Of a stretch of 50,856 bases of DNA, positions 14,516-43,129 are shown piece after piece. A program made the translations under genes and the position numbers. The stretch lies in NCBI GenBank assembly GCA_001802565.1, contig MGYS01000016.1, positions 86,719 to 137,574 on the forward strand. Reading direction: 5' to 3'. The notes under the pieces are model-generated. The model was not told where the DNA came from. It was given only the letters and a program-made list of their open reading frames with translations, and did no database searches. This DNA is from Gammaproteobacteria bacterium RIFCSPLOWO2_02_FULL_57_10 (GTDB lineage Bacteria > Pseudomonadota > Gammaproteobacteria > Pseudomonadales > Pseudohongiellaceae). Numbering within the stretch: position 1 is the stretch's first letter; each line of letters opens with the position of its first letter.

Positions 14516-14529
14516 ACTTCCAGCGCACG

Positions 14530-14638: not shown

Positions 14639-14667
14639 CAACCAAGGCAACAAAGAGCAACATCCCG

Positions 14668-14946: not shown

Positions 14947-14958
14947 CGTACAAGTTCT

Positions 14959-15177
14959 TCAAGAGTGCCAGGAAATATCAATCTTGCGTTTGTGTGCAAC
15001 GCAGTCCTGCAAGTAAAGATTTATGAGGCTCTGGTAGGGGACGCCCGCCTCTTCTGCCATGCCTTTGAAGTAGGCGATTACCTCTTCGTCCATTCGAATG
15101 GTAATCGATTTCTTCAACTTCGCAGCGTAGGGATTAGGCCGCGATTTCATTCCAGACAAATTGTATTCTGATTTCAT
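14959..15177 (-). CDS. brnA: BrnA-family antitoxin (RHH-type)
   Basis: SITIRMDEEVIAYFKGMAEEAGVPYQSLINLYLQDC is typical BrnA. ATGA start/stop overlap with the upstream toxin gene. Confidence 0.8.
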   Translation of the reverse strand: MKSEYNLSGMKSRPNPYAAKLKKSITIRMDEEVIAYFKGMAEEAGVPYQSLINLYLQDCVAHKRKIDISWHS

Positions 15178-15476
15178 TTTTCAGACCCATTGTAGAACTG
15201 GCTTTCGTTGGCGGTAGCCTTCCGAGCAGAGATGATCCTGATCATGCTTTCAGAATCACTGACGCAATGAACCACGATAAGCAGTCGTCCTTTGTCACTC
15301 ATACCCAACATCAGATAACGGTCTTCAGATACCGAGTTATCGATGTCAAAGAACTGAACCGCAAGTTCATCGAAGAAAACCGAGCGTGCTTCTTCAAAAG
15401 AAACATTGTGCTTCTGCATATTGGACGTATGCTTGGCGCGATTCCAGATGAAGCGTATCATATGTACACCGTACAT
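15174..15476 (-). CDS. brnT: BrnT-family toxin (DUF497)
   Basis: FIWNRAKHTSNMQKHNVSFEEARSVFFD...RIISARKAT is typical BrnT. An alternative ATG lies at 15461. Confidence 0.8.
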   Translation of the reverse strand: MYGVHMIRFIWNRAKHTSNMQKHNVSFEEARSVFFDELAVQFFDIDNSVSEDRYLMLGMSDKGRLLIVVHCVSDSESMIRIISARKATANESQFYNGSEK

Positions 15477-15626
15477 ACATAGCTGTGAGGCTCAAATGGT
15501 CTCTGTTGCTGGAAAGCGTTCCGCAGGGGATTGATTGGCATCCTTGCCTCCCATGAACAAATTGCAGGGTTTTAATTATCCAAGTTATAGCACATGAAAC
15601 TCTTGCAGGAAGGAAACCCTCCACTT

Positions 15627-26943: not shown

Positions 26944-27177
26944 TCATAGCTTGTCATTGGCTTTCAGATCAACCAGAAGGGCTTCATAGCTGATGGTGGG
27001 TTCTGACACTCGCATCTCAAAGGCCGCAAGGTCCTCCTGATCTTCCGCAAGAGAGGCCCGCACCGCATCGTTCACAAGCTCGGACACGGAGCGGTTCGCA
27101 TGAGCCGCCTTCAGACGCAGCGCTGCATGCAGGGCGGAATCGAAATAGATGGTGGAGCGCTTGGGCTGATCATTCAT
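26944..27177 (-). CDS. Ribbon-helix-helix (CopG/RelB-like) antitoxin-type protein, no adjacent toxin
   Basis: STIYFDSALHAALRLKAAHANRSVSELVNDAV is a typical RHH strand-helix-helix. Only 56 nt separate it from arfB downstream. Confidence 0.6.
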   Translation of the reverse strand: MNDQPKRSTIYFDSALHAALRLKAAHANRSVSELVNDAVRASLAEDQEDLAAFEMRVSEPTISYEALLVDLKANDKL

Positions 27178-27251: not shown

Positions 27252-28598
27252 TCAATCCCTCATCAGCGTGATCTGCGTATCCTCATCCAGCCTTGTCCAC
27301 GTGCCGGTAATCTGCCCGCCACTCAGAGCCCCCACAAAGCGCGCATCGATCGCGTTGATCTGAAAGCGCAGGCTCTGCCCCTCCAGTGCAACGCCGCTCA
27401 CAGGCACATTGATCATGCCGACACTGGCGATATCGAGGAACGTGTCAAAGCCGCCATCGGCGGTGGCCGCGAATCGGAACACCAGATCCGCACCCGTGAC
27501 ATTGCCGCGCCAGGTGCCCTGCAGATAGCGCTGTGCATCGGCGGTGAGATCGGGATTCGGGACATAGGGCCCGCGCGTCAATGCGATAGGAGACTGCTGA
27601 CCCGCCTGCTGCCACTGCGCGTCGATGCTGTCCTGCGCCAGCGTGCCGGTGAGCGAGCCACCAATGACGGCGGCGGAGAGGGTCAACTGATCGCCATCCA
27701 ACTGGATCTGCGTGATGGGAATATTGCTGGCACCCTGATCCTGGCTGTCGAAGAAAGCGGCGAAGCGGCCGCTTGCCGTGCGCTCGAAACGAAAGACCAG
27801 ATTGAGTGGGCCGATCTGGCCGTGCCACGGACCTTCAAGACGCGCGAACTGTTCCTCGGACAACGGCAGTCCCGCCGCCTCGTACTCTCCGCGTGTCAGA
27901 TTCAGCTCCAGTGATCTGCTGGCCTGCACCCAGTCGCCATTCAGCGCGTCACCATCCAGAGTGCCGATGAACTCCATGCGCGCGCGATTGACGGACAGGG
28001 TCAGTTCGTCATTGATCATGCCGACGCTGTCCACCGGAATGCCCATGGTGCCCTCGTCCGGGCTGTCCATGAACGCCGCGAATTCACCCTGAGCATCGCG
28101 CTCGAAGCGGAACACCACAGTGACTTGCAGATCGTCATCGGGATTGGGTCGCAGCGTGCCTACCCAGGAGCCGAGAATGCGCTCCATGTCGGCCGCTGTC
28201 AGAACAGGCTCGACGTAAGGGCGCAGAGTGAGAGGAACGGTGGAGCCGGGTTGTGTCCAGCTTCCCGTCACCACACCATCGGTGAGGCGACCGGCGAAGG
28301 AACCACTCAGCGCGGCAACACCAAGACTCAGGCCGCCACCTTCAAAGCTCACGTCTTCCACCGGCAGATTCTGCAGGGCGGGTTGCTCTGGAGAGCTGAC
28401 GGTAGCCGTCAGCTGACCATCGGCATCGCGCACGAAATTGAAATGCATCTCGATGCCCTGGCCGGGTGCGATCTCCAGCATGCCTTCCCAGATGCCGGTC
28501 AGGTCGTCCTGAGCGAGAACGGATTGAGTCGTCAACGCCATCATTGCCAGCAACAGCCTTGTGAAAAACCGGCCCATCATTCCTTGCACTATTCCCAT
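27252..28598 (-). CDS. Secreted protein built from four tandem ~100-aa repeats, unknown function
   Basis: Signal peptide (LLLAMMALTTQSVLAQD). Four units each begin G-x-W-x-G, contain F-R/N-F...G-x-F/L-x-A...P-V/I...F-x-G-x-L...G-x-W and end L-T/M-R. Confidence 0.6.
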   Translation of the reverse strand: MGIVQGMMGRFFTRLLLAMMALTTQSVLAQDDLTGIWEGMLEIAPGQGIEMHFNFVRDADGQLTATVSSPEQPALQNLPVEDVSFEGGGLSLGVAALSGSFAGRLTDGVVTGSWTQPGSTVPLTLRPYVEPVLTAADMERILGSWVGTLRPNPDDDLQVTVVFRFERDAQGEFAAFMDSPDEGTMGIPVDSVGMINDELTLSVNRARMEFIGTLDGDALNGDWVQASRSLELNLTRGEYEAAGLPLSEEQFARLEGPWHGQIGPLNLVFRFERTASGRFAAFFDSQDQGASNIPITQIQLDGDQLTLSAAVIGGSLTGTLAQDSIDAQWQQAGQQSPIALTRGPYVPNPDLTADAQRYLQGTWRGNVTGADLVFRFAATADGGFDTFLDIASVGMINVPVSGVALEGQSLRFQINAIDARFVGALSGGQITGTWTRLDEDTQITLMRD

Positions 28599-28609: not shown

Positions 28610-28960
28610 CTGGATCACGACATCAATGGAGCGCGACAGTATCACAGAGCGTCCATTTTGTCTGAACCGTCTGGTACGGCTCGCCGGGATCAGATTCAGG
28701 CGTTCCGCACGTTTCAGATTTGGGAGGAGCATCGGGAATGCTATGGCTATCCGGAAACTGCGCCAGCAATGCGCCGCAAGGTGTTCGGGTTGAATGCTGC
28801 GGTGCCGTATGGCATCACCGAGGACGAAACACCAACGCATACGAGCAGTGATGCCGTGGCGCGAAGAAAGGAGAACGATCGCAATGATCCGCAGCCGCAC
28901 TATCTGGCGTTCTGGCCGAAGAATCGAAGAGAGTTTCTCCGTTTCTTGAAGTGGAGTTAA
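28610..28960 (+). pseudogene. 3' remnant of an amidohydrolase-family gene
   Basis: QIQAFRTFQIWEEHRECYGYPETAPAMRRKVFGLNAAVPYGI...PKNRREFL matches only the C-terminal ~110 aa of metal-dependent amidohydrolases. There is no N-terminal body, and the upstream space is occupied by the opposite-strand gene. Confidence 0.5.
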
Positions 28961-29047
28961 CGACTTGCGACACGTCGATCTCACGGTGAAAGTTCAAATT
29001 TATGAGTTAATCATGTCAGCGATATAGGAAGCTAGGTTGTAGAAAAA

Positions 29048-29596
29048 CTAACTCAAGGTGCATTTACGAGATAGCCATTTCCTGATGAGAATCAACCTGT
29101 AAATGGAAAAAAGTAAAGCGCATAGAAAATATGCGATTCCGGGAATCATTATTGTTGGAAAACCAATGTCGCTACCCCACGGCGCAGTAGTGAGCAATAT
29201 GAACAAGTTCAAGCTGAAAGCAAGGTAGTAGAGATAAACGATAACTGACTCAGAGACAGCGAGTTCGGACCTTGAAAGATCGACCGTTGTCGCTGAAGAC
29301 CTAAGCGCAAGCGTCACGAAAAGTATGCTGAAAATGGTTATTCCGATAATGGTAATAAGCACGTTGATATACAAGAATGAAGAGGCCCCCCTTGTAATTC
29401 TAGAGACAGCCCCGAACCAAAGTGAGAAGGGAAGTGCTGCAAAGCATACAACTGTAGAGAGCCTGTAAACTTTAACCAAGAACTCAATTTTTCCTTTCGA
29501 TAGCTCGTGTGCAGTAACATGCTTTGGATTCTCAGAGAAGTAACTACCGGATACCGCATTTAGATAGAAACTATCATCATACTTGTATATAGCCAT
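29048..29596 (-). CDS. AT-rich four-TM membrane protein, candidate immunity/self-protection protein
   Basis: Last gene of the peptide operon. Four hydrophobic helices, AAGGA RBS and markedly AT-rich codon usage. No family recognised. Confidence 0.5.
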   Translation of the reverse strand: MAIYKYDDSFYLNAVSGSYFSENPKHVTAHELSKGKIEFLVKVYRLSTVVCFAALPFSLWFGAVSRITRGASSFLYINVLITIIGITIFSILFVTLALRSSATTVDLSRSELAVSESVIVYLYYLAFSLNLFILLTTAPWGSDIGFPTIMIPGIAYFLCALLFSIYRLILIRKWLSRKCTLS

Positions 29597-29630
29597 GACA
29601 TATCCTTTTGAAAGGCATCGTAGAGTTTAC

Positions 29631-29681
29631 AAAGCACAATTGTTAAATCCATTTTATTCAGAAAAATAACAATTGTGCTTT
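29631..29681 (-). promoter_or_regulatory. Perfect 15-bp stem-loop between the precursor peptide gene and the downstream membrane-protein gene
   Basis: aaagcacaattgtta - 21-nt loop - taacaattgtgcttt. No T-tract follows on the coding (minus) strand. Confidence 0.4.
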
Positions 29682-29722
29682 CAGTACCGGGCCGGGCCGG
29701 TTTTTAAGCTACTTTAAGCTTT

Positions 29723-29977
29723 TTAAGAAGAAGTCTCTTCAGATGAGACTGATCCACCACCCATTGATGCAAGATTCATGATTACAGATCCACCTACTCC
29801 GAGAACTGCGGCACTAACAGCAAGCGATGCTGTTACTACTGCTCCTGCAGCGAGGAATGGAAGTGTGGCCGCTGTAGCTGCACCAATGAATGCGTACGTG
29901 GCTCCAGCGGCGTAGGTGTACGCATCAAACTCCCCACCAGAAACAATACCTATCTCTTCAACCGTAAGTAATCGCAT
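29723..29977 (-). CDS. Double-glycine-leader precursor peptide (class II microcin/bacteriocin-like), 84 aa
   Basis: The leader MRLLTVEEIGIVSGG fits the LSxxELxxIxGG consensus at positions -12, -8, -7, -4, -2 and -1. AAGGAG RBS lies 6 nt upstream. The gene sits immediately downstream of the C39-ABC exporter gene. The 69-aa core is Ala/Gly/Ser-rich and hydrophobic. Confidence 0.75.
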   Translation of the reverse strand: MRLLTVEEIGIVSGGEFDAYTYAAGATYAFIGAATAATLPFLAAGAVVTASLAVSAAVLGVGGSVIMNLASMGGGSVSSEETSS

Positions 29978-30037
29978 GACAAAACTCCTTGTAGAAAATT
30001 GATTTCCAGATAAAGCCATGACAGAAGGCTCAATTAA

Positions 30038-30065
30038 ATACTAGTACAGAAATACAATAATTCAA
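30038..30065 (-). promoter_or_regulatory. Candidate sigma-70 promoter for the precursor peptide gene
   Basis: On the minus strand, TTGAAT - 16 nt - TAGTAT lies in the AT-rich 106-nt spacer between the ABC gene and the peptide gene. Pattern match only. Confidence 0.25.
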
Positions 30066-30083
30066 TAAATTGGCATGAATCCG

Positions 30084-32201
30084 TTACGGCACATCACCGA
30101 TGTGTTCGCGAAGGATACAGTTATCAAGAATCAGCACTCGATTAGCAATCGCCAATGGAGCCGTTCGATGCGTGATGAAGATTACGGTAATGTTCAATGC
30201 ACGAATCTCCTCCAGAATCGCACCCTCCGTCTCAAGGTCAAGATTCGCGGTGGCTTCATCCAGGAACAGGATGCGCGCGTTCTTGTAGAACGCTCGTGCG
30301 AGCAGAATGCGTTGCCCTTGCCCCGATGACATGATCGATCCCATATCGCCGATCAGGCTGTTGTAGCCCATGGGCAATGACTGGATGAACTGATCTATCC
30401 GCGCCATATGCCCGGCTCTTTGCAATCTTGCGTGATCCACTTCGTCATCGAACAGCGTGATGTTGTCCATGATCGTGCCGGACAGCAGTTGATCAGTTTG
30501 CAGAATGCCCGCACAGGCATCACGATACTGACGCACACCAAATTGCTGCACGTCGGTGCCATCCACTTTCAGTGAGCCGGTGTCTGGCTGCAGCAGTCCT
30601 GCCATCAATTTCATCAAGGTCGATTTGCCGGAGCCAGACGGGCCAACAATGGCGATGATTTCACCCGCAGCAACGTTGAGGTTGAGACCACTCAGAACGG
30701 GACAGGCGCTGCCAGGGTAGGCATAGGACACATTTTCCAGTGTCAGTGCGCCCTGTATCGGCACGCGTAATCTGGGCAGGTGGAGACTGTCGAACTCTTT
30801 CTCGGTACAGGTAATGTCGGAGACACGTTCGAGCTGTAGCCGCACCAACCGGATCTGCACGATCTTCTCGATGAAGGAGCGGATAGATGAGGAGAAATTG
30901 CCTTTGAGTGCGACGAACGCGGTAAGAAAGCCCAGCGTGATTTGCCCTTCAAGCACCAGTGTTGCGGCGAGATAGATGATCAACACATTCTCCAGCGCGA
31001 ACAGCAGGCCGTAAACGGCATCGATGTTGATGGTGAAACGAGTCAGTACCACATTGGTATTGATCTGCTCGGCATAATAGTTGCGCCAGAGCATGACGCG
31101 GGGCAGCTCGCGACAGTAGAACTTGATGATCTCGATGGCGCGCATGTTCTCCATGAGATTGGAGCTGGTCTTGGCGTCGGACACGATCTTCTGTTCCTGT
31201 AATGCCTGGATCTTCGGAATCAATGCAATCTTGAGCGTAGTGGCCAGCGTCACGAACAACAGGACCACCGAGGCGAGTGTGACATTGAAGTAGAACATCA
31301 CGACCAACGTCATCAAGGCAAACAGCCCGTCGAGAACGACGGTGATCAGGTCTTCGGTGATGATGCGGCGAATCTCGCGAATGGAACCGAAGCGCGACAC
31401 CAGATCGCCGACATGACGTTTCTCGAAGAATTCCACCGGAAGGGTGATGAGATGATTGAAGACATTGCTCACCATCTGGAAGCCGAGCTGATTGGAGAAA
31501 TAAAGTTGAACCTGTGCCCGTGCGTAAGTCATTGCGACACTCGTCAGTCCGAGCATGAAGAAACCGATGGCCAGCACGGTGAGGAAGTCACGATCCTGTT
31601 TCGCCAGCCCTTCGTCGATGACAAGTTGCATGTAGAACGCGCCGCCGATCGAAGCCAGTTGCAGCAGCAGCGATAACAGGAACAACTGTGTGACAGCGGT
31701 GTAGAAGCCGCGATAGCGCTCGAACAACTCCATGAGCTTCGAGCGCAGCAACTGGGTCTGCGGTTTGAACGCTGCGCCCGGTGTGAACTCCACTGCGATG
31801 CCCGTGAAGTGGCGGCTCGTCTCTGCCATGCTGTACTGTCGCTCACCCGCCGCCGGATCATGAATCACGATGGACGTCGTCGTGACTTTCTTCAATACGA
31901 CAAAGTGAGTCATGTCCCAGTGCAGCACCGCAGGCAGTTGAAGGTTCTGCAGGTCCTCCATCTCCAGTTTCAACGGACGGGTATTCAGGTCCAGTGCGCT
32001 GGCGATGCTGAGAATCTCGGCGAGATTGGCCCCGCGAGAAGAGATCGGATATTCACGCCGCAGAGTGTTCAGATCGATACGGCGCCCGAAATGGCTTGCC
32101 ACCATGGCGACGCAGGCAAGGCCGCATTCGGCGCGTTCTGCCTGCAGAATGATCGGCAGGGAATGCCTGGAGCAAAACAGCGTGTCGACAAGAGCCCGCA
32201 T
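30084..32201 (-). CDS. Peptidase C39 domain-containing bacteriocin ABC exporter (CvaB/HlyB type)
   Basis: N-terminal C39 with Cys (QAERAECGLACVAM), His (HWDMTHFVVL) and IHDPA. Six-TM region. Walker A GPSGSGKST, signature SSGQGQR, Walker B ILFLDEATANLD. Confidence 0.9.
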   Translation of the reverse strand: MRALVDTLFCSRHSLPIILQAERAECGLACVAMVASHFGRRIDLNTLRREYPISSRGANLAEILSIASALDLNTRPLKLEMEDLQNLQLPAVLHWDMTHFVVLKKVTTTSIVIHDPAAGERQYSMAETSRHFTGIAVEFTPGAAFKPQTQLLRSKLMELFERYRGFYTAVTQLFLLSLLLQLASIGGAFYMQLVIDEGLAKQDRDFLTVLAIGFFMLGLTSVAMTYARAQVQLYFSNQLGFQMVSNVFNHLITLPVEFFEKRHVGDLVSRFGSIREIRRIITEDLITVVLDGLFALMTLVVMFYFNVTLASVVLLFVTLATTLKIALIPKIQALQEQKIVSDAKTSSNLMENMRAIEIIKFYCRELPRVMLWRNYYAEQINTNVVLTRFTINIDAVYGLLFALENVLIIYLAATLVLEGQITLGFLTAFVALKGNFSSSIRSFIEKIVQIRLVRLQLERVSDITCTEKEFDSLHLPRLRVPIQGALTLENVSYAYPGSACPVLSGLNLNVAAGEIIAIVGPSGSGKSTLMKLMAGLLQPDTGSLKVDGTDVQQFGVRQYRDACAGILQTDQLLSGTIMDNITLFDDEVDHARLQRAGHMARIDQFIQSLPMGYNSLIGDMGSIMSSGQGQRILLARAFYKNARILFLDEATANLDLETEGAILEEIRALNITVIFITHRTAPLAIANRVLILDNCILREHIGDVP

Positions 32202-33436
32202 TACAGTTTTCTGCCCAGGCTTGTCAGTGGTGAAAACAATCGTTCGAGGAGATTACTGCTACCCGTGATGATTTCGGCCGAGAACTGCATGCCTGATCTG
32301 AACTGGGCGTCGTTCGCATGATGTTGGTCGATCCGCGCGCGCACGAGATAGGCAGGTTCGTTCAAATCCAGAGGGATCAAGAATTCTCGCGGGTCCATGA
32401 CAGACGACGAGACATTGACGACCGTTGCCGCAAAAGTCCCGTGCGTCTGGTAGGGGAAGGCATCGTAGGAGAGCATGATCTCGTGTCCCACCTGCACTTT
32501 TCCCACAGCGCGTGAGGGCAGATACAGTCGCGCTTCCAGCACGGCATCGTGTGGCACCAGTGTTGTGAAAGGAATCCGGGGATCGACGGTATCTCCCGGG
32601 CGCAAGAGTAGATTGCTGAGTGTGCCGTCCGCTGGAGCGAGAAGAGTGAACAGCCCTTGTGAACCAAGCTCGTCCTGCTGCGCGAGCAATTGAGAGAGTG
32701 TGCTCTGCATCGAGAGCCATTCCTCCTGTACTGCGAAGGGCTGCAGGGCAAGCTGTTGTCTCGCCTCTTCCAGAGCGAGCTTGCGTCCCTCGATATTCAG
32801 ACGTGTCGTCGTGCTCGTCTGCTGAAGAGCGTACCAGGTTGATTCGACCTGGTTGTGCTCGCGATTGGAGATGGACTTGCGCGCCAGCAGAGTGGCGCTG
32901 CTCCTGTACTCCTGTTCTGCGAGAGCGAGTCGCTTCAGGACCACATCATGCTCTTCCTGCAACAACGCCAACTCTTCGCTCAATCCTGCGATACGAGCAC
33001 GTGATTGTTCTTTGGCGATCAGTGCGCGCTTCTCAAGAACAGCGATTCTCTCCTGCAGTTGCGCGATCTGTTTTCCGGTGTGCTCGAGGAGGACACTGGT
33101 GGACCGCCGCCCGGCCTCGTCCGAGCGCCCAGCAGCGATCGTTGCCAGGATATCGCCCTGACGTACACGTTGTCCTTCGATACCACGAATGTCCAACAGG
33201 ACGCCGGAACGTTCGCTGTAAACCTTGATCTCTCCTGCAGAGGGGATCAGATGTCCCCTCACCATCTCGGTTTCCTTTATCTGCACCAGAGCAGCGAAGG
33301 AGACGAATGAGAGGAAAATCAGTGTGATCCCGATCACCATCGCACGGACGGTCAGAGGTTGATAGAAAAGCGCATCACCGTATTGCGATGCTGTGCTTGC
33401 GAGCAAGGCTTCCCGACGGAACAGTTCTGAAGTCAT
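32201..33436 (-). CDS. HlyD/CvaA-family periplasmic adaptor (membrane fusion protein)
   Basis: FRREAL N-terminus, TM helix VIGITLIFLSFVSFAALV, long coiled coil and C-terminal beta domain. AGGAG RBS. TAATG overlap with the ABC start. The upstream extension in the track reads through a REP and was rejected. Confidence 0.85.
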   Translation of the reverse strand: MTSELFRREALLASTASQYGDALFYQPLTVRAMVIGITLIFLSFVSFAALVQIKETEMVRGHLIPSAGEIKVYSERSGVLLDIRGIEGQRVRQGDILATIAAGRSDEAGRRSTSVLLEHTGKQIAQLQERIAVLEKRALIAKEQSRARIAGLSEELALLQEEHDVVLKRLALAEQEYRSSATLLARKSISNREHNQVESTWYALQQTSTTTRLNIEGRKLALEEARQQLALQPFAVQEEWLSMQSTLSQLLAQQDELGSQGLFTLLAPADGTLSNLLLRPGDTVDPRIPFTTLVPHDAVLEARLYLPSRAVGKVQVGHEIMLSYDAFPYQTHGTFAATVVNVSSSVMDPREFLIPLDLNEPAYLVRARIDQHHANDAQFRSGMQFSAEIITGSSNLLERLFSPLTSLGRKL

Positions 33437-33449
33437 TTGCAGGCTCCTG

Positions 33450-34784
33450 TCACATTCGGTTATCGCGAACAGGGCTCGCTCCCACAGAAGGGCAGCGGTG
33501 CTCGAAGTAGTTTGGCAGTGAGCTGAGGTATTTCCACTGGGCAGGGCTTCGCGAGATCCATTTCTCCGCAAGGTTGACAAGCTGTTGGGTGATGCGTGAT
33601 GTGGCGTCGTCCAGAGACTCGCCAGTCAACAGTTCCGTGTCGATGACAGCTTCCATCTCGATGTGGCTCTGACCATCCCTTTCGAATGTGATGAAAGGGA
33701 GGATGGGCGCCTTTCCCATGATCGCCAGTTGCGCCGGGCCCTTGACGAAGCGAGCAGCGTGGCCAAAGAAGGTGACAGCTACTGTGCCGCCAAACTCCTC
33801 TTTAAGATCGAACATGATGGCTAGCGTGTGATCTCCCCTGCGCAGAGCGCTGACGATACTCACAGGGTTGTACTGGCCGTGCCTCAATACTCTGTGCCCG
33901 GGTCGATTACCAATGACGTAGTCTTTCTCCCTTGCGCTGTCCTGCTCGCGTCGAAGAGAAATGGCTGCACGTTTTGGACCTGCAAGCGCTGCAAGGCATT
34001 TGAATGCACCGAGAAAATCTCCCATGTGAATGGTCGCCAGAACGCGGGAGCCTGGTTGAGCTGCGATGTATGCGATGTAATCCTTTCTTTCCGGCCAGAC
34101 GAATGCATCGAGGTAGCGTTGGCCGTCGGCGAATCCGTGCAGATGAACATGACGTTTCGCAAAGTTGTATTCGCAGTGAAAGCGACATTCTCTCAACATT
34201 GCCTGAACCACATGTTCTGGCTCGTGCAACAGCATACCGAGAATTCGCGTGTGAACGTCGGTCGCGAGGCGTTCCGTTGGCAGTGACTCTTCCAGCGCGA
34301 ACCGCAGACGGAGAAGAGCGCGCAAGAGAATTTTTCTGAGCGCAATGGATTGTCCGGATACCACGCACCGCTTGGACAGGTTCTGCACTATCAGTAGAAT
34401 GCGCTCAGAGAGCGTAAAAGGAATCGAAATCCCATCCTTGGAATCGCCTTCGAAACTCTGAATGACTGCATCGTGAAGCTGCAACGCGTAGCGAAGCAGC
34501 GATTCGCATTCCTGATATACGTAATCCGTCTTCACGAGTTCGACCCGAAGGCTAAGCTCAGTCTGCAGCACCCGCACTCCGGGATCGAGCGCAGGCAATT
34601 TCTGCCGCAATGCGCGCGTCACCGAAATCATGCGCAGACTCAGCAGGTACTCCATCGCAGAGCAGCAATACTCCATACTTCGGCGACATTCGTCATACTG
34701 CAGGCAACGCCACGCGTTCAGCAGGGTTTGCCGAACGGAGGGCAGCCGGATTGTGGACAACTGTGCTGGCAGAGTGTCTTCCAT
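33450..34784 (-). CDS. LpxL/lysophospholipid acyltransferase (LPLAT, PF03279-like) family protein with ~200-aa N-terminal extension
   Basis: The C-terminal half has ATIHMGDF (HxG[ND][WF]-type catalytic region), LRRGDHTLAIMFD and FFGHAARFVKGPAQLAIMGKAPILPF. The N-terminal helical region has no TM anchor that I can see. The last ~12 codons are encoded by a REP unit. Confidence 0.6.
   Translation of the reverse strand: MEDTLPAQLSTIRLPSVRQTLLNAWRCLQYDECRRSMEYCCSAMEYLLSLRMISVTRALRQKLPALDPGVRVLQTELSLRVELVKTDYVYQECESLLRYALQLHDAVIQSFEGDSKDGISIPFTLSERILLIVQNLSKRCVVSGQSIALRKILLRALLRLRFALEESLPTERLATDVHTRILGMLLHEPEHVVQAMLRECRFHCEYNFAKRHVHLHGFADGQRYLDAFVWPERKDYIAYIAAQPGSRVLATIHMGDFLGAFKCLAALAGPKRAAISLRREQDSAREKDYVIGNRPGHRVLRHGQYNPVSIVSALRRGDHTLAIMFDLKEEFGGTVAVTFFGHAARFVKGPAQLAIMGKAPILPFITFERDGQSHIEMEAVIDTELLTGESLDDATSRITQQLVNLAEKWISRSPAQWKYLSSLPNYFEHRCPSVGASPVRDNRM
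33462..33486. repeat. Single REP unit inside the 3' end of the acyltransferase gene
   Basis: atcgcgaacagggctcgctcccaca. It is translated as ...PSVGASPVRD... in the acyltransferase frame. Confidence 0.75.
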
Positions 34785-34793
34785 GACGTTCTC

Positions 34794-35102
34794 TCAGATC
34801 GTGGTCGGTTCCTTTGTGATGCAGGCCCGGTGAATCAGCGTGATGAGATCGCCAACCGTCTCCAGTTCCGCCATCAGTTGTTCGTCCGCCACTATTGCAA
34901 AGCGCGCCTCAAGAGCGAAGATGATTTCAACCAGTTTCAAGGAGTCCATTCCAAGTGAGCCGAGGCTTGTCGAATGTGCGAGTTCGATGTTGCAACGGCC
35001 TGAGTTCCGCAAGAGCTCCGTTACGACCAACTCTATGTTCTGTAATATGACTCCATGTGACCCCTCTTCCTGCGACGTCATAGCCTTCTCATGACAGTTC
35101 AT
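34794..35102 (-). CDS. Acyl carrier protein
   Basis: Phosphopantetheine attachment motif LGMDSLKLVE. The ATG overlaps the ligase stop as ATGA at 35099-35102. Confidence 0.8.
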   Translation of the reverse strand: MNCHEKAMTSQEEGSHGVILQNIELVVTELLRNSGRCNIELAHSTSLGSLGMDSLKLVEIIFALEARFAIVADEQLMAELETVGDLITLIHRACITKEPTTI

Positions 35103-36757
35103 GCAACCACTCCTTGTGCTTGTGTACGGACACTGAATTTCACAGAGCTTTCCAGGTAACGCTCCCTGCAACGCTCTCTCTGAAGTTTGCCGCTGGTTGT
35201 CAGGGGTAGTGCTCTTCTGGGGACGATTTGAACATCATCAGGCGCGATACCAAATTCATCGCACACCAGTGTGCTGGCAGCCGTCGGTATGGTGGTCATC
35301 ATCGCACCGCTGACGGTACTGGCGTGCTCCAGCAACAGGATCAGCGCATCGCTTTCATCATTCGGGACAGTGAACGCTGCGCAACGCGTGATGCCTTGAG
35401 TGTTGAGAACTCTCTCCACTCTTTCCTCGATATCTTCGGCATGAAATGTACGGCCGCGTCGCTTGAACACGTTCTTGAGTCGTCCCACGAAATGGAGCGT
35501 GCCCTGCCTGATGAATCCGAGATCGCCGGTCCGCATATAACCCCGCACGCCATCAAGGACTTGATCGAACGTCGTTCGTGTAGCGGCTGCATCATTGAAA
35601 TATCCCGGCGAGAGGGATGAAGACCTGAGCCACACCTCCCCAGTCGTTCCATCCGGAAGAGGACGCTGTTTCAGCGGGTCCACGATGACAATACTGTCTT
35701 GTTCCATGATGCGGCCCACTCCCGGATAATCGGTCTGGGAGGAGGGCGTGACACCATACTGACCACATACAAAGAGCGTTGACTCAGCCATGCCGTAGCA
35801 AGGGAAGAACGCTTCCTTGTCGAATGACGCGCTTGCGAACCGGCGCGCAAATCGTGCCAGAACGGAGGGAACGATTCTTTCGGAACCGCAATAGGCAAGA
35901 CGCCATGTGCTCAGATCCAACGGCTCCTCATCCTGTCGGAAAGGTTCACCATTTTCCGCGCACAGTGCATAGGCGAAAGTGGGCGCGCCACTGATCGTGG
36001 CTTTGCATCTGGAGATGGCGCGCAACCAGCGTAGTGGGTCACCAATGAAATCCGCAGGAGAAAGAAAATAGTTCGGCACGCCGCAGTAAAGAGACTGGAT
36101 GACATGACCGATCAGTCCCATATCGTGATGGAACGGCAGCCAGGATACGCAGACATGTTCCGGGGAACAGCCAAAACGTTGCCTGATGCTTTCGGAATTG
36201 TGCAACACATTCGCGTGCGTCACGATGACACCGCGCGGATGTGAGGTGGAGCCGGACGTGTATTGAATGAAGGCAATGTCGTGTGGTTGCACATCCGGGC
36301 GTTGCCACGATGCAACATCGACAGGCCAGTCAGGCACATCGGTGCAAAGGACTTGCACACGCCCTGCATGCAACAGCGCTTGCGGAATCAGCCTTTGCGT
36401 CGAGGAAAGCGTGAGGACAGTAGTCGCGCCACTTGTCGCAATCGTCCTTAAAACACTTGTCCAATCTTTCCCACGAGGCTTTGTGAGTGGCATGGGCCAT
36501 GCTCCGGCGAGAATGGTGCCTAGAAAAGCGACAATGAAGTCAGGGCCGTGAGGATAGAGCAGCGCGATGGGTGATTTCTGCAATCTGCGCTGCTGCAGGA
36601 CTGCGGCAATAGTCACCGCTTTGTCGTACAGTGCTGCATAGGTCAATTCGTGACTGATCGAGACTTCCTTGTTCAGAAAGGCATACAACCTTTGGTGCGG
36701 AGATTGATTGACCTGCATTTCCACAATGGATAGCAGATCCTGCTTGGTGGCTGACAT
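35099..36757 (-). CDS. Fatty acyl-AMP ligase-type adenylating enzyme (AMP-dependent synthetase/ligase)
   Basis: FIQYTSGSTSHPRGVIVTHANVLHN (AMP-binding core), YMRTGDLGF and TTSGKLQR. Followed directly by an ACP rather than using CoA, which is the FAAL arrangement. Confidence 0.8.
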   Translation of the reverse strand: MSATKQDLLSIVEMQVNQSPHQRLYAFLNKEVSISHELTYAALYDKAVTIAAVLQQRRLQKSPIALLYPHGPDFIVAFLGTILAGAWPMPLTKPRGKDWTSVLRTIATSGATTVLTLSSTQRLIPQALLHAGRVQVLCTDVPDWPVDVASWQRPDVQPHDIAFIQYTSGSTSHPRGVIVTHANVLHNSESIRQRFGCSPEHVCVSWLPFHHDMGLIGHVIQSLYCGVPNYFLSPADFIGDPLRWLRAISRCKATISGAPTFAYALCAENGEPFRQDEEPLDLSTWRLAYCGSERIVPSVLARFARRFASASFDKEAFFPCYGMAESTLFVCGQYGVTPSSQTDYPGVGRIMEQDSIVIVDPLKQRPLPDGTTGEVWLRSSSLSPGYFNDAAATRTTFDQVLDGVRGYMRTGDLGFIRQGTLHFVGRLKNVFKRRGRTFHAEDIEERVERVLNTQGITRCAAFTVPNDESDALILLLEHASTVSGAMMTTIPTAASTLVCDEFGIAPDDVQIVPRRALPLTTSGKLQRERCRERYLESSVKFSVRTQAQGVVA

Positions 36758-36886: not shown

Positions 36887-37861
36887 ATGATCACGGAAGA
36901 AATTGGAAGAACGGATTCCTGCGCGCAGAACCATAGCGAATTTTCAGCAATGGTGGTGGGAAAAATTCTTTGGGAGTACGAAAAGGCGCCTTGTCGCATA
37001 CAAAGTCTCTACGAACTTGCCAAGGAGAAAATGTGGAATGCCAACAGTGATGTGCCGTGGAATGATTTCGGTCGTGACAGATCCTTTCCTTCCTCGCACG
37101 AAAGCGAACCACTGACAGGATTTGCGGAGTATGAGGCGCTTCCGGATGATGAAAGGCGCCGCATCAGTTGGTGGCGGCACGCGCTGGAGATCAGCGAGAT
37201 TCTCCATGGCGAGCAGGGTGCGTTGCTGGTCGCCTCGCAACTGGTCTCGTGCCTGCCCACTGTGGAATCCAAGTTGTTTGCGAGCTCACAGGTCTTTGAT
37301 GAAGCGCGGCATGTAGAATTCTTTTCGCGCTATTTGCGCGAAGTGGTTGGCGAAATTCATCCGCCGAGCGAGGAGTTGAAGCGGCTCATTCAATCGATGG
37401 TAGACGAACCGCGCTGGGACATGAAGTTCATCGCCTGTCAGATTCTGATCGAGAGTCTGGCGATGGCGAAATTCCAGGAGATTCGTCAGTCAACACAGGT
37501 GCCGGTGCTCGCCTTTGCGATTGATTACATCGCGGCTGATGAAGCACGGCACGTGAAATTCGGCACGGAGTTTCTCAAGGATCATCTCGCCAGTCTGAGC
37601 GCTCCCGAACTCGCGGAGCGCAGCGATTTCGTGCTCGATAATGTGCTGCGCCTGGCGAATTCATTGAATATCACCACGCGTATCGCGGAATCGTACGACT
37701 GGGATGTAGCGGCTCTGCGTCATCATCTGCGTCAGTATCGTGTACGCCATCCCGAGATCAATCGCAATCGCTTTCGCCAATTGCTCATCAATCTGAAGGC
37801 AGTGGGTTTGCTGACCGAGCGGACGCACATGCGGATGATGTCTATGGAGGTGATGCGGTAA
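36887..37861 (+). CDS. Ferritin-like diiron-carboxylate protein (oxygenase/desaturase-like)
   Basis: Ligand pattern E...ExxH...E...ExxH: ILHGEQGA, FDEARHVEF, ILIESLAM and AADEARHVKF. Divergent from the ligase operon. The start is uncertain. Confidence 0.6.
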   Translation: MITEEIGRTDSCAQNHSEFSAMVVGKILWEYEKAPCRIQSLYELAKEKMWNANSDVPWNDFGRDRSFPSSHESEPLTGFAEYEALPDDERRRISWWRHALEISEILHGEQGALLVASQLVSCLPTVESKLFASSQVFDEARHVEFFSRYLREVVGEIHPPSEELKRLIQSMVDEPRWDMKFIACQILIESLAMAKFQEIRQSTQVPVLAFAIDYIAADEARHVKFGTEFLKDHLASLSAPELAERSDFVLDNVLRLANSLNITTRIAESYDWDVAALRHHLRQYRVRHPEINRNRFRQLLINLKAVGLLTERTHMRMMSMEVMR

Positions 37862-37870
37862 GCGAGGGGT

Positions 37871-38083
37871 CTAGTCGATGAACTTCTTGATGACTATATC
37901 CGCACCAATTTCACCAGGAGAGGGTAGAGCAAGCTCGTCGGCGTGGACGCCATAGGCATCCAAGCCGTTGAGCAACTCGGCCTCGGAAAATGGCAGCTTG
38001 ACTCGGCGAGGAACCTTTTCGGCAGCATCAATCAAAATCTCGCCGCCTCCGACTTCAAGATGGATTTCGCGCGCTTCTTGAGC
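37871..38083 (-). pseudogene. Remnant of an AbrB/MazE-type antitoxin gene (no start codon, N-terminal domain missing)
   Basis: A 70-codon open frame bounded upstream by TAG: AQEAREIHLEVGGGEILIDAAEKVPRRVKLPFSEAELLNGLDAYGVHADELALPSPGEIG... It resembles the C-terminal two-thirds of MazE/PrlF-like antitoxins. No toxin gene follows. Confidence 0.4.
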
Positions 38084-38104
38084 CTAACGACTGGCGCAGT
38101 TTTG

Positions 38105-39475
<1,371 letters not shown>

Positions 39476-39674
39476 TTACTGAAAAGATAAGGATAAACGG
39501 GCACCGTGACCCGAGTCCACCTCCTTTCCCTGTCAATCGACAATTTGCCCTGAATCAGCAGGGAGAATGCAATGATTGAGGCACCAATGATACCGCCCGT
39601 CAAACTCGTTGCCTTTCTCGTCCTGTGTAGGCATTCTCAAACCTGAAGGAGCAATCTAACCCAGGAGGAAGACA

Positions 39675-40877
39675 GTGAAAATCATCAGAATATGCCTTGT
39701 CGCAGCGTTGCTGCAGTTATCGAATTCCTCGTATGCCCAAGACCTATGGATCCCCGCCGGCGTATCGTTGGGTGGTTCTGGCACTGCCCAATACAACTCC
39801 ACCACAGGGCTTCTCAATATTCCGTTTCTGCTCATGCGTCGACCAGGGCAACTTTCAGGAGAAGCAGTGTACGGTGCAGTGATGCAACACACAGGGAACA
39901 ATGAGTTCAAGCTGCTCAGAACCGCTGCGCTGCGGCAGGACGATGAATGTACTCAGGCTGAGGTGTTGGCCGCCATTCCGCAGTTGTCGTTGAGTTTGTC
40001 ATTGGAGCAGGCCGAGGCATTGATTGGCTGTAAAGCTGTGCTGAATGACAGAGGGACTGATTTGACTACTGGCCGCCTCGTAGCAGCCGGTTGGACCGGC
40101 GCTGATGGGATTGCCAATCCGGGGGCTGCGCATCTGGTCAGTCGGGTTGGCAATGCCGGTTATATCACTGGCGGTTCTGGACGGCCCGTGATCGGAAGCA
40201 TCGGCAGCGGTCTATCGATCACTTCACTCAATTACACTCCCCCGGGCGTGGTTTTCATCAGTGCAACGCCCGCTGTCATGTTGATATTTCGAGAGGGAAC
40301 TCTGGAGGAATACACCTACAGTGTGAATGACGGATATGCGGCGTGTCAGCTCGAGACGCTGACTGCAAACCATGCTCTGCTGACAGAAGGCATGAGCGGT
40401 GATGAAGTCAACCTTGCCCTGGGTTGCGGCCCGGACTCACGCCAGGGAACGGTGACAGTCAGTGAGCAGCGCGAAGAGCGCAGGTGGACAGCGGAAAGGA
40501 CCACGGTGACTGGTCAGGGTGACGTTTCAACCTCCGATGTACTGGTGACGGCGACACTGGTGGATGGTGTGCTGGACTCCACATCGATCATGCGCGGCTC
40601 GATGCAATCGTTCCGATCCTCGGATTGTTCGGTGGACACGCTGACAGACGGTGCCAATCGCATCCGTGAAGGACTGGCGGAATCTTCGCTGCTCGACGCT
40701 GTGGAGTGTGAGCCTGGATTCATCAGCAGCAGCAGCGTCAGCGAAACCGCAACCAAAAGCTACTACCAGTGGCGAACCGAAAACCGTGACGCATCACCGT
40801 TGGAGTCAGTGAACCGCTCACTGTCCGTGACATTAACTGATGGCGTAGTGAGCGATATCAACTTCCAAAGATTCTGA
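39675..40877 (+). CDS. Secreted protein of unknown function with repeated Cys-containing modules
   Basis: GTG start after a GGAGGAAG RBS. Signal peptide ending SSYAQD. Recurrent L-x-x-G/L-x-x-x-E/D-h-x-x-x-h-G/E-C modules. Confidence 0.5.
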   Translation: MKIIRICLVAALLQLSNSSYAQDLWIPAGVSLGGSGTAQYNSTTGLLNIPFLLMRRPGQLSGEAVYGAVMQHTGNNEFKLLRTAALRQDDECTQAEVLAAIPQLSLSLSLEQAEALIGCKAVLNDRGTDLTTGRLVAAGWTGADGIANPGAAHLVSRVGNAGYITGGSGRPVIGSIGSGLSITSLNYTPPGVVFISATPAVMLIFREGTLEEYTYSVNDGYAACQLETLTANHALLTEGMSGDEVNLALGCGPDSRQGTVTVSEQREERRWTAERTTVTGQGDVSTSDVLVTATLVDGVLDSTSIMRGSMQSFRSSDCSVDTLTDGANRIREGLAESSLLDAVECEPGFISSSSVSETATKSYYQWRTENRDASPLESVNRSLSVTLTDGVVSDINFQRF

Positions 40878-40936
40878 TCCGGCTGTAGGCCCCATGATGT
40901 GAACAGTGATGCGAGAAGAGGGAATGTGTTGGGGAG

Positions 40937-43129
40937 TTACAGCACTTCGAGTTTGGCGTAGGACAACACCAGCCACTTGCTGCCCGCATCATGAAAGTTC
41001 ACCTGCACGCGGGCATTCGCCCCGTGGCCCTCGCAGTTGAGCACCACGCCTTCGCCGAACTTGCCGTGGCGCACTCTGGAGCCCAGGCTGATTCCGGCGT
41101 CTGGAATGTCGTCCTGCACCAGAGAGGGGGCGGGGCGACCGTAGAACGCGGACGGCCTGGTGATAGTGGACTTGATCCGCACATGCTCGATCAGCTCAGC
41201 CGGAATCTCGCGGATGAAGCGCGAGGGTCGGGTGATGTTGACGTCGCCGTGCAGACGGCGTGACTCGGCATGAGTGAGGTAGAGTTTGCTCATGGCGCGG
41301 GTGATACCGACGTAGCAGAGGCGGCGTTCTTCTTCGAGCCCGGCCAGTCCGTCCATCGACATCTTGTGCGGGAACAGGCCTTCTTCCATCCCGGCGAGAA
41401 ACACCAGAGGGAATTCCAGACCCTTCGCGGAGTGCAGGGTCATCAGTTGCACGGCATCGTCGGATTCACTCGCCTGCCCCTCACCGGCATCGAGAGACGC
41501 CTGATCGAGGAACGCAGCGAGGAAGGCCATGGATTCGATGGCCATCGCTTCGGCATCCGGATCGAGTTCATCGAAACCACCGGCAGCATTCACGAGTTCC
41601 TGCAGGTTCTCGATGCGCGCGGCGGCTTTCTCGCCACCTTCCTTCTCGTGATGCGGAATCAGCCCGCTGTGAGTGATGATGTACTCGACTTTCTTCGCGA
41701 GTGCGAGCGGTTCAGCGCCTCGGTGCAGTGCATCGATCAGTTCCATGAAGTGCCGGATCGCACTTGATGCGCGTCCGGCGAGCAGACCATGCGTGAGACA
41801 TTTTTCTGCAGCGGCCCACAGCGACAATCCTTCATTGCGAGCCACACCGCGCAGGATCTCCAGCGTCTGATCGCCGATGCCTCGTGTCGGCACGTTGATG
41901 ATGCGTTCCACTGCGGTGTCGTCGTGACGGTTGACCAGCAGGCGCAGATACGCGAGCGCATTCTTGATTTCGAGCCGCTCGTAGAAGCGATGTCCGCCGT
42001 AGATGCGATAGGGCAGGCCCACACGCAGCAGCGCATCTTCCAGCTCCCGTGATTGCGCGTTGGAACGATAGAGGATGGCAGAGTCCTTGAGACGGTTGCC
42101 GGTGTTGAGCCAGCTCTGCAAACGTTCGACGATGAAGCGCGCCTCGTCCTGTTCGTTGAAGGCCTCGTAGAGAGAGATCGCCTCGCCGTCGCTGCCTTCG
42201 GTCCATAATTCCTTGCCGAGCCTTCCCTGATTGTTGCTGATCAGTTTGTTGGCGGCCTTCAGGATATTGGAGGTGGAGCGATAGTTCTGCTCCAGCCGCA
42301 CCATGTCCGCGCCCGGAAAATCCTGATTGAAGCGCTGGATGTTCTCGATCTTCGCGCCGCGCCAACCATAGATCGATTGATCGTCGTCGCCCACCACCAT
42401 GAGGTGATTGTCCTTGCCCGCGAGCACGCGCAGCCACGCGTACTGGATCGTGTTGGTGTCCTGGAACTCATCAACGAGGATGTGCTGGAAGCGACGCTGA
42501 TAGTGCTGGAGGATCTGCGGATTGTTCAGCCACAGCTCGTGAGCGCGCAGCAGGATCTCGCCGAAGTCGACCATGCCGCCGCGCTGGCACGCGTCTTCAT
42601 ACGCCGCGTAGAGCTGAATCATGTTGCGCGTGTACTCATCGCCGAAATGCTCGATGTGTTTCGCGCGCAGGCCTTCGTCCTTCTGCGAATTGATCCACCA
42701 CTGGCACTGACGTGGTGGCCAGCGCTCTTCATCAAGTCCGAGGTTCTTGCATAGGCGTTTGATCAGTCGCAGCTGGTCATCGCTGTCGAGAATGTGAAAA
42801 TTTTCCGGTAGATTCGCCTCGCGAAAATGCATGCGCAGCAGACGATGTGCAAGACCGTGGAAGGTGCCGACCCACATGCCGCCGAGGGACTGTCCCAGCA
42901 GGTGCTCGATGCGATGGCGCATCTCGCGGGCGGCCTTGTTGGTGAAGGTCACGGCAAGGATGCTGAAAGGGGAGACCCCTTCGATCTGCATGAGCCAGGC
43001 GATGCGGTGTACCAGCACGCGGGTCTTGCCGCTGCCAGCGCCGGCCAGTACCAGAAGGTTGTTGGCGGGGGCAGCCACGGCCTGGCGTTGCGGTTCGTTG
43101 AGAGAGTCGAGAAGGTAAGAGACGTCCAT
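40937..43129 (-). CDS. uvrD: DNA helicase II
   Basis: LVLAGAGSGKTRVL (Walker A), VDEFQDTN (motif II), NYRST, VTFTNKAA and TLHSAKGLEF. Start at MDVSYLLDSLNEPQRQAV; the upstream extension runs into a REP. Confidence 0.9.
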   Translation of the reverse strand: MDVSYLLDSLNEPQRQAVAAPANNLLVLAGAGSGKTRVLVHRIAWLMQIEGVSPFSILAVTFTNKAAREMRHRIEHLLGQSLGGMWVGTFHGLAHRLLRMHFREANLPENFHILDSDDQLRLIKRLCKNLGLDEERWPPRQCQWWINSQKDEGLRAKHIEHFGDEYTRNMIQLYAAYEDACQRGGMVDFGEILLRAHELWLNNPQILQHYQRRFQHILVDEFQDTNTIQYAWLRVLAGKDNHLMVVGDDDQSIYGWRGAKIENIQRFNQDFPGADMVRLEQNYRSTSNILKAANKLISNNQGRLGKELWTEGSDGEAISLYEAFNEQDEARFIVERLQSWLNTGNRLKDSAILYRSNAQSRELEDALLRVGLPYRIYGGHRFYERLEIKNALAYLRLLVNRHDDTAVERIINVPTRGIGDQTLEILRGVARNEGLSLWAAAEKCLTHGLLAGRASSAIRHFMELIDALHRGAEPLALAKKVEYIITHSGLIPHHEKEGGEKAAARIENLQELVNAAGGFDELDPDAEAMAIESMAFLAAFLDQASLDAGEGQASESDDAVQLMTLHSAKGLEFPLVFLAGMEEGLFPHKMSMDGLAGLEEERRLCYVGITRAMSKLYLTHAESRRLHGDVNITRPSRFIREIPAELIEHVRIKSTITRPSAFYGRPAPSLVQDDIPDAGISLGSRVRHGKFGEGVVLNCEGHGANARVQVNFHDAGSKWLVLSYAKLEVL

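Follow-up and report, generated by a model that had tools for sequence, protein, structure and literature searches.

A putative lipidation module linked to a microcin-type peptide exporter in Pseudohongiellaceae-like Gammaproteobacteria

Organization of the gene cluster

The stretch of DNA analyzed in this study, hereafter called the window, comprises 50,856 nucleotides of contig MGYS01000016.1 from Gammaproteobacteria bacterium RIFCSPLOWO2_02_FULL_57_10 (assembly GCA_001802565.1, positions 86,719 to 137,574 of the forward strand). On its minus strand, three closely packed genes were found, which encode a ligase related to fatty acyl-AMP ligases (FAALs), an acyl carrier protein (ACP) and an acyltransferase (AT). 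They are followed by genes for a peptide exporter, a microcin-like precursor and an immunity-like protein. With a probability of roughly 0.55, the trio serves lipidation in a bacteriocin system akin to the class II microcins, in which the C-terminal serine or cysteine of a peptide would be acylated in an ACP-dependent manner prior to export. The genes and domains of the locus are:

36757-35099, minus strand: FAAL-related ligase, 552 amino acids
35102-34794, minus strand: ACP, 102 amino acids, phosphopantetheine site Ser54 in GMDSL
34784-33450, minus strand: AT, 444 amino acids
34269..34784, minus strand: AT residues 1-172, family-specific N-terminal domain (AlphaFold2 model)
33450..34268, minus strand: AT residues 173-444 and stop codon, catalytic domain with PatA/LpxM fold
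32201..33436, minus strand: HlyD-family membrane-fusion protein (HlyD_3, 1.1e-10; type_I_hlyD, 1.2e-34)
30084..32201, minus strand: Peptidase-C39 ATP-binding cassette (ABC) exporter, 705 amino acids (Peptidase_C39, 2.1e-34; ABC_membrane; ABC_tran)
29723..29977, minus strand: microcin-like precursor, 84 amino acids (open reading frame and leader hidden Markov model, HMM)
29048..29596, minus strand: immunity-like protein, 182 amino acids, four hydrophobic segments
36887..37861, plus strand, divergent: ferritin-like di-iron oxidase (AurF/R2lox-like; Pfam AurF, 7.2e-14)

The packing of the trio between positions 33450 and 36757 had already been described in an initial annotation of the DNA, and the three genes lie on the minus strand at the coordinates given there. 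The plus strand reads TCAT at positions 35099-35102, which corresponds to ATGA on the coding strand. The TGA stop codon of the ligase gene and the ATG start codon of the ACP gene overlap within this motif, just as annotated. Likewise, the reported spacing of 9 nucleotides (nt) between the ACP stop codon (34796-34794) and the AT start codon (34784-34782) is exact. It is also present in L034, a metagenomic copy of 95 % identity with the same gene calls and an ACP of 102 amino acids. The HlyD gene begins with an ATG at 33436, 13 nt past the AT stop codon, and AGGAG is located upstream of it. The N-terminus of the resulting protein (MTSELFRREAL) is typical, and a longer HlyD reading frame beginning with a TTG at 33580, inside the 3′ end of the AT gene (33437-33580), is probably an artefact and not the real start. 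From the ligase to the ABC gene, neighbouring genes are thus tightly packed: the first two overlap by 4 nt, gaps of 9 nt and of 13 nt (the latter with a Shine-Dalgarno sequence) come next, and the HlyD stop and ABC start codons share 1 nt at 32201. A scan for promoters and terminators was uninformative, as fewer were counted than expected from shuffled sequences.

Conservation of the module in related genomes

A homology search with the AT yielded 75 relatives of approximately 390-480 amino acids, the only named ones stemming from Pseudohongiella and unclassified Gammaproteobacteria, while scanning 185,579 species genomes led to 23 loci. Pseudohongiellaceae-like Gammaproteobacteria conserve the module at about 28 loci. 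In every complete locus, a divergent gene for the di-iron oxidase is followed by the genes for ligase, ACP, AT, HlyD and C39-ABC. Because this gene order recurs in all of them, the arrangement of the trio is not a matter of chance. The same six genes in the same order exist at the divergent loci L029 and L030 and at the metagenomic locus L035. L031 is organized likewise save for the oxidase gene, whose place is taken by an insertion sequence (IS) element, and L003 is an exception since it lacks the ligase gene.

The L031 module is flanked by IS/transposase genes (4150-5976 and 13601-15490) and, its oxidase gene being missing, may have been mobilised or be in decay. The most divergent module is that of L029, whose AT is 27 % identical and has no precomputed Pfam match. 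A plasmid origin of the module was considered and rejected, as a tblastn search against 72,556 plasmids returned one marginal match to a lysophospholipid acyltransferase (LPLAT) gene; phages were not searched.

The ABC protein of the window matched bacteriocin-exporter models, and it contains the cysteine of the ECGLAC and the histidine of the WDxxHFVV motif. Both catalytic residues of the C39 peptidase are kept in 21 of 21 related ABC genes with a readable motif. For the di-iron oxidase, R2-like ligand-binding oxidases (4hr0 and 7qbk, ~1e-4) and an aldehyde-deformylating oxygenase (5uxg) were detected as nearest solved relatives. The protein is closer to these R2lox/deformylating oxygenase structures than to arylamine N-oxygenases. 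The R2-like ligand-binding oxidases and the aldehyde-deformylating oxygenase are presumably lipid-binding di-metal proteins, and the oxidase of the module may tailor the acyl chain. Genes for lipid-type enzymes also border on orthologs of the oxidase gene, namely an enoyl-CoA hydratase gene at L005 and L029 and a P450 gene at L030.

Precursor peptides and their common C-terminus

The precursor gene of the window starts 7 nt downstream of an AAGGAG sequence. Its product consists of the leader MRLLTVEEIGIVSGG and a Gly/Ala-rich core of 69 amino acids with the tail ...GGGSVSSEETSS. The core does not contain any lysine, arginine, histidine or cysteine, its nucleophiles being hydroxyls only. A tblastn search with the precursor against the other loci gave no homolog. 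A peptide of 71 % identity (P0089) is encoded at L033; it retains 14 of the 15 leader residues as well as the SSEETSS tail, but has a diverged core. Between the two loci, the ABC proteins are 96 %, the precursors 71 % and the immunity-like proteins only 58 % identical, a contrast that is expected for a diversifying bacteriocin-immunity pair. The immunity-like protein itself had no match in Pfam or NCBIfam.

With a 15-residue leader HMM, peptides located directly after the ABC gene were picked at L015, L017, L019, L022 and L025 (23-30 bits; next best 5 bits), and further ones were recognized by inspection at L029, L030, L031, L033 and L035. The assumption that precursor homologs exist at all related loci had to be abandoned, since the leader HMM together with a loose C-terminal filter led to only 11 loci. 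Altogether, 16 GG-leader peptides are encoded there, whose cores fall into at least four unrelated types. The peptide gene directly follows the exporter gene at 10 of these loci (the window, L015, L017, L019, L022, L025, L029, L030, L033 and L035), while the candidate precursor of L031 is encoded on the opposite strand. Genes for immunity-like membrane proteins come after the peptide genes.

What the 16 peptides have in common is their C-terminal residue, which is serine in 15 cases and cysteine in one, preceded by aspartate, asparagine, serine or lysine. The tails are:

...EFVSDS, ...EFVSNS, ...EFVPNS
...YLESDS, ...YLEGDS, ...YLSDDS, ...YLAGDS
...VADDS, ...LALNNC, ...HLSSS, ...RKSS, ...SSEETSS

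The ATs of the peptide-bearing loci are only 25-66 % identical. The single cysteine end belongs to the precursor of L029 (10415-10594), which has a Gly-Ala cleavage site.

At five loci, GG-leader peptides occur as a tandem pair (L015, 14338-15049; L017, 13753-14459; L019, 14602-15310; L025, 14365-15081; L035, 8833-9836). The pair is made up of an "a" type with the tail EFVS[DN]S and a "b" type with the tail GGATTGYLExDS, and after it comes a protein of about 100 amino acids with a CxxC...CxxC motif and transmembrane (TM) segments. The two peptides could be a two-peptide bacteriocin. A metagenome-wide scan for b-type peptides gave one match, which lies beside a full module (L035).

Catalytic domain of the acyltransferase

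The AT matched the Pfam family PF03279 (Lip_A_acyltrans) with 38.5 bits (cut-off 22.3; E 9.8e-10). The match was confined to residues 309-420, corresponding to profile positions 183-289 of 295. The thresholds of two NCBIfam equivalogs were clearly missed (PatA, 42.4 versus 209 bits; LpxL/LpxP subfamily, 20.2 versus 297.8 bits). A full-length AlphaFold2 model based on 32 family members was obtained with a predicted local distance difference test (pLDDT) value of 89.5 and a predicted template modelling score (pTM) of 0.88. In a Foldseek search, it retrieved PatA (5f2z; E 2e-10; target template modelling score 0.74-0.75 over approximately 255 columns) and LpxM (5kn7; E 4e-8). The known fold therefore spans approximately residues 170-430. 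These data bear out the suggestion of the initial annotation that the C-terminal half is LPLAT-like. The start of this half was misplaced, though: it had been set at about residue 230 together with ATIHMGDF, whereas this motif occupies residues 250-257 and the fold begins at about residue 170.

Within the family (n = 32), the motif IHMGD followed by a hydrophobic residue is invariant or nearly so. His253 (codon 34028-34026), Met254 and Gly255 are invariant and Asp256 almost invariant; further invariant residues are Asp326 (codon 33809-33807), Gly349, Pro350, Gln416 and Trp417. The acidic residue of the canonical HX4(D/E) motif is absent. As had been noticed before, an aspartate is located at +3, and position +5 is taken by a variable hydrophobic residue in the family. 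An hhalign comparison paired His253 with His132 of LpxL and placed Glu137 of LpxL on a one-residue gap (HMGDF-LGA versus HFLTLELGA).

PatA has His126 as general base, with help from a distant residue, Glu200 (PMC8519569). Asp326 of the AT precedes by 7-8 residues the segment aligned with PatA from position 207 onward. It lies near the position of Glu200 and may be the distant acidic partner of His253. Since PatA uses a distant glutamate and the family has an invariant Asp326, loss of the HX4(D/E) acid need not impair activity. The earlier idea that the changed motif may alter activity is right as far as the missing acid is concerned, but an effect on catalysis does not follow from it. In addition, the initial annotation started from the assumption that enzymes of the LpxL/LpxM/PatA type are normally anchored by a short N-terminal TM helix. 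For PatA, the closest solved relative, this norm is too narrow, because this enzyme has no TM segment and is monotopic, held by amphipathic helices (PMC8519569).

N-terminal domain of the acyltransferase

The N-terminal domain (residues 1-172) was modelled confidently on its own by AlphaFold2 (pLDDT 92.3). The model comprises three helices, a beta-hairpin (residues 70-83), a long helix (90-112) and two Leu/Arg-rich helices (125-141 and 147-165). To estimate how much of the protein is additional, offsets from three alignments were extrapolated (residue 309 to Pfam position 183; residue 334 to PatA model position 208; residues 226-421 to E. coli LpxL 95-292 by hhalign), according to which an ordinary family member would begin near residues 127-132. 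By this estimate, the extra domain comprises about 130 residues, or about 170 if the two Leu/Arg-rich helices are counted. The extra domain of the initial annotation is real, but with some 200 residues its size had been overestimated.

The domain contains 32 leucine, 18 arginine and 6 cysteine residues, in agreement with the earlier description of a Leu/Arg-rich helical region with several cysteines and no TM helix. The cysteines, however, are not conserved in the family and the domain has no invariant column, by which a Cys-rich metal site was rejected. A hidden N-terminal TM anchor was dismissed as well: no TM helix is predicted because the highest Kyte-Doolittle mean over 19 residues is only 1.33 in the whole AT. 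By the same offsets, the anchor of LpxL would correspond in position to helix 147-165 (IALRKILLRALLRLRFALE), which has a net charge of +4 and a hydrophobic moment of 0.31 and is too weakly hydrophobic to span a membrane.

Searches for relatives of the domain gave no match in Pfam at E<=10, only noise among the PDB sequences (designed helical repeats at E 0.02) and a best Foldseek value of E 0.79 with template modelling scores not above 0.26. Two candidates were discarded for lack of support by Pfam, PDB and Foldseek. One was a RiPP (peptide made on the ribosome and modified post-translationally) recognition element (RRE) or winged-helix leader-binding domain. The other was a familiar lipid-binding or membrane domain, which had been named earlier as a point to be checked and against which the hydropathy values speak as well. 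A profile of the domain detected 35 proteins among 1.84 billion representative proteins, nearly all of 386-480 amino acids. They share the architecture of the AT, the few short ones probably being fragments; apart from these, the domain was neither fused to other domains nor standing alone in this dataset. Its mean column identity is 27 %, compared to 36 % for the catalytic part.

Ligase and acyl carrier protein

In Pfam, the ligase matched AMP-binding (1.9e-62) and a DIP2-like C-terminal domain. Its best PDB relative is 7r7g (8.7e-96), followed by 3kxw, FadD23, 3pbk and FadD32; the relatives include the Legionella and E. coli FAALs and FadD28. The top NCBIfam matches are FAAL subfamilies as well, all of them below the curated cut-offs (326 versus 600 bits for NF006624; 307 versus 775 bits for NF004509). 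All FAAL alignments break at the same place: after YGMAESTLFV, the FAALs have 30-40 residues and the window ligase 7-17. By contrast, 4-coumarate ligase and DltA align with the window ligase without any gap across this site. The distance between YGMAE and RTGD is 88 residues compared to about 111 in the FAAL 7r7g, and an insertion of about 23 residues is absent around residues 330-350 (~35710-35770).

The break falls at the site of the FAAL-specific insertion, which was reportedly assigned to the N-terminal domain by Arora in 2009 and has served to recognize FAALs (PMC8460268). In orthologous ligases of other module loci, the YGMAE-to-RTGD spacing ranges from 88 to 108 residues, so that this family seems to be losing the insertion or to vary in it. 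Judged by these features, the ligase is FAAL-related but not a canonical FAAL, and its previous designation as FAAL is correct only with regard to its nearest relatives. Given the overlapping ACP gene, loading of a carrier protein would be the natural reading of its function. The ACP was recognized by PP-binding (2.7e-8) and by ACP models at about 1e-7.

Proposed function and alternative explanations

Acylation of the peptides can be pictured as follows. The ligase would, according to homology and gene coupling, adenylate a fatty acid and load it onto the dedicated ACP, the fatty acid possibly being oxidised by the R2lox/AurF-like di-iron enzyme. Context and peptide conservation suggest that the AT, with acyl-ACP as donor, would then acylate a hydroxyl or thiol in the precursor, with His253 as general base and Asp326 and/or Asp256 as helper. 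The most likely target would be the side chain of the C-terminal serine or cysteine, which would be acylated at the cytoplasmic face while the peptide still bears its leader. The N-terminal domain may provide a docking surface for the non-lipid acceptor or the ACP. Finally, C39-ABC/HlyD would remove the leader and export the lipidated peptide, with the adjacent membrane protein serving as immunity protein. A core offering only O-nucleophiles, like that of the window, fits a family known to O-acylate hydroxyls (PMC8519569).

Several points weigh against this proposal. At approximately 17 of the approximately 28 loci, the module is intact, yet no precursor could be recognised within 10 kb; one of these loci is the closest relative, L001. 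In the window, the precursor/immunity cassette has a foreign GC content (0.41-0.45, compared to 0.53-0.58 in the module and 0.59-0.62 in the flanks) and is an indel relative to the syntenic L001. The module is therefore older than the window peptide, which means that precursors are encoded elsewhere in those genomes or that the module has a peptide-independent role. Furthermore, all characterised enzymes of the LpxL/LpxM/PatA type acylate a lipid or glycolipid, and a peptide-acylating member was not found in the literature searched. Receptor binding or export could also be the reason why the C-terminal serine is conserved. The cationic helix 147-165 could be a membrane-surface helix as in PatA. 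The ligase lacks the FAAL-specific insertion, and a fatty acid is only its presumed substrate. The non-lipid acceptor suggested in the initial annotation gains from the HlyD/C39-ABC genes, the GG-leader precursor and the Ser/Cys ends, and loses by the many loci without a precursor.

It is conceivable, though unlikely, that the AT retained a lipid, glycolipid or lyso-lipid as acceptor. The module would then make or remodel a special lipid, and bacteriocin cassettes would merely land next to the C39 exporter and be exported unmodified. The recent low-GC insertion in the window, the majority of loci without an adjacent precursor and the cationic Leu/Arg-rich helices at the position of the LpxL anchor would all be in line with this, as would the lipid acceptors of the characterised relatives LpxL, LpxM and PatA (for PatA, PMC8519569). 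It is, however, at odds with the presence of the AT in one tight operon with HlyD and C39-ABC genes at every locus. Moreover, the catalytic C39 residues are kept even at orphan loci, so that a peptide substrate is to be expected there. Passive hitch-hiking would also leave unexplained why unrelated peptides share a Ser/Cys end, and the AT has neither a TM helix nor an N-terminal domain with lipid-binding relatives.

A second alternative accepts acylation of the peptide but assigns another task to the N-terminal domain. It might dock the ACP or the exporter, or replace the membrane anchor as a solubilising cap. That the domain is unlike RRE or winged-helix leader-binding domains and packs with the catalytic domain as one rigid body (pTM 0.88) would suit such a role. 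Its faster evolution (27 % versus 36 % identity) speaks, albeit weakly, for a varying partner such as the peptides instead of a conserved ACP, and altogether this explanation is rather improbable.

The third alternative reverses the polarity of the reaction. The ligase would adenylate the C-terminal carboxylate of the peptide and load it onto the carrier protein, and the AT would join the peptidyl group as an ester to a hydroxyl of a lipid or sugar, giving a C-terminally anchored microcin reminiscent of the C-terminal ester of siderophore-microcins. Such a route could draw on the conserved peptide C-terminus, the departure of the ligase from canonical FAALs, the lipid hydroxyls that are the native acceptors of the AT family and the modification of class IIb microcins at their C-terminal Ser-rich tail (PMC13101503). 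It is nevertheless very improbable, as the N-terminal domain of the ligase is closest to FAALs that activate fatty acids (7r7g, 8.7e-96), the accessory enzymes are of the lipid type (R2lox-like, enoyl-CoA hydratase, P450) and the Ser-to-Cys swap at L029 points to a side-chain nucleophile and not to a carboxylate. We also know of no precedent for an ANL enzyme that loads a peptide of about 40-70 amino acids onto an ACP.

Relation to known systems

If the C-terminal Ser/Cys side chain is indeed acylated before export, the system is like a hybrid of class IIb microcins, RTX toxin activation and the LpxL/PatA acyltransferases. With the class IIb microcins (MccE492, MccH47 and MccM) it shares the GG leader, the C39-ABC and HlyD proteins, the hydrophobic Gly/Ala-rich core and the adjacent immunity gene. 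A further likeness is the Ser-rich tail ending in serine, which in class IIb microcins is recognised by co-encoded enzymes (PMC13101503). On the other hand, the tail motif of the peptides is [D/N/S]-[S/C] and not a 10-amino-acid Gly/Ser motif, and the hosts are Pseudohongiellaceae-like bacteria, not Enterobacteriaceae. The candidate modification genes encode the ligase, ACP, LPLAT and di-iron oxidase, while genes for a glycosyltransferase, an esterase or MceIJ/MchCD-type proteins were not found among the cluster proteins by Pfam and NCBIfam. Since the class IIb maturation genes are absent, the system does not belong to this class.

RTX toxins are acylated in an acyl-ACP-dependent reaction before type I export, with HlyC, HlyB and HlyD encoded in one operon. 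Cytoplasmic acylation of a ribosomal product together with a co-operonic ABC/membrane-fusion protein exporter is also what is proposed here from the genes. HlyC, however, belongs to the TAAT family, N-acylates internal lysines of a large toxin and makes use of the housekeeping ACP, and the C39-like domain of HlyB is inactive. By contrast, the window encodes an LPLAT fold, its own ligase and ACP, a leader of the GG type that is cleaved off and a core without any lysine.

The only fatty-acylated RiPPs named in a publication of 2026 are those modified by GNAT N-acyltransferases on Lys/Orn side chains or the N-terminus (PMC13647313). Selidamides, lipolanthines, goadvionins and lipoavitides are similar to the proposed product in being fatty-acylated ribosomal peptides, several of them with GG-type leaders. 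They differ in that the window AT belongs to PF03279, the core is devoid of lysine and arginine, the N-terminus is freed only on export and the C-terminal residue is predicted to carry an O- or S-ester.

As to the enzymes, the AT resembles PatA of M. smegmatis (5F2Z, 5F34, 5OCE) and LpxM/LpxL in its fold, in the histidine motif I-H-x-G and in the motifs GPAxLA and PxQW. It has in common with PatA the lack of a TM helix and possibly a distant acidic partner (Asp326, cf. Glu200), and with LpxL/LpxM the probable donor, acyl-ACP. What separates it from all of them is the extra N-terminal domain of about 130-170 residues, the deleted HX4(D/E) acid, the low score (42 versus 209 bits) and the location of its gene in a peptide-exporter operon instead of a lipid pathway, the acceptor probably being a peptide. 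The FAALs FadD32 and FadD28 and those of E. coli and Legionella are the best relatives of the ligase, whose gene is likewise coupled to that of a carrier protein, but the window ligase lacks the insertion of about 23 residues (spacing 88 versus ~111) and misses all curated cut-offs. The literature searched contained no description of this module, nor of any RiPP or microcin cluster with an acyltransferase of the LpxL/LPLAT type.

The AT probably represents a new enzyme family and its product a new linkage of peptide lipidation. As a tentative and somewhat doubtful generalization, the peptides may be called "lipo-microcins", in which the first LPLAT-superfamily member acting on a ribosomal peptide would form a Ser/Cys ester by means of a private ligase-ACP pair and R2lox-like tailoring. 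In known modified microcins, the C-terminal serine bears a siderophore. By analogy, the lipid tail could be a handle for uptake or membrane insertion. If true, there would be a new class of enzymes and a new linkage (C-terminal Ser/Cys ester) for the lipidation of peptides, and the acceptors of the LPLAT superfamily would be widened from lipids to peptides. Lipidated peptides would also become accessible by a short route that is genetically encoded. Moreover, a lineage-specific module of marine and freshwater Pseudohongiellaceae-like Gammaproteobacteria would be defined, whose function is so far unannotated.

Surroundings of the module in comparison to L001

The cassette with the precursor and immunity genes (28958-30135) stands in place of a PhdYeFM antitoxin gene of L001, which possesses toxin-antitoxin genes and an amidohydrolase gene at this site. 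The last 91 codons of the L001 amidohydrolase gene remain in the window (28685-28957). The stretch directly after the ABC gene is a variable hot spot.

Farther downstream, the window contains a gene for a ribbon-helix-helix antitoxin-like protein (26947-27177, minus strand), which is 88 % identical to its counterpart in L001. There, the gene is followed by one for a ParE toxin and comes ahead of a gene for a secreted repeat protein of 445 amino acids. In the window, ParE gave no tblastn match, and the order of 26947-27177 and 27252-28598 (both minus strand) is swapped compared to L001. The swapped gene order and the missing match to ParE indicate a local rearrangement. On the other side of the module, between the genes for the di-iron oxidase and a UvrD-like protein, the window has about 3 kb (37865-40938) in excess of L001, which include argG (38105-39457) and an open reading frame of 400 amino acids (39675-40877).

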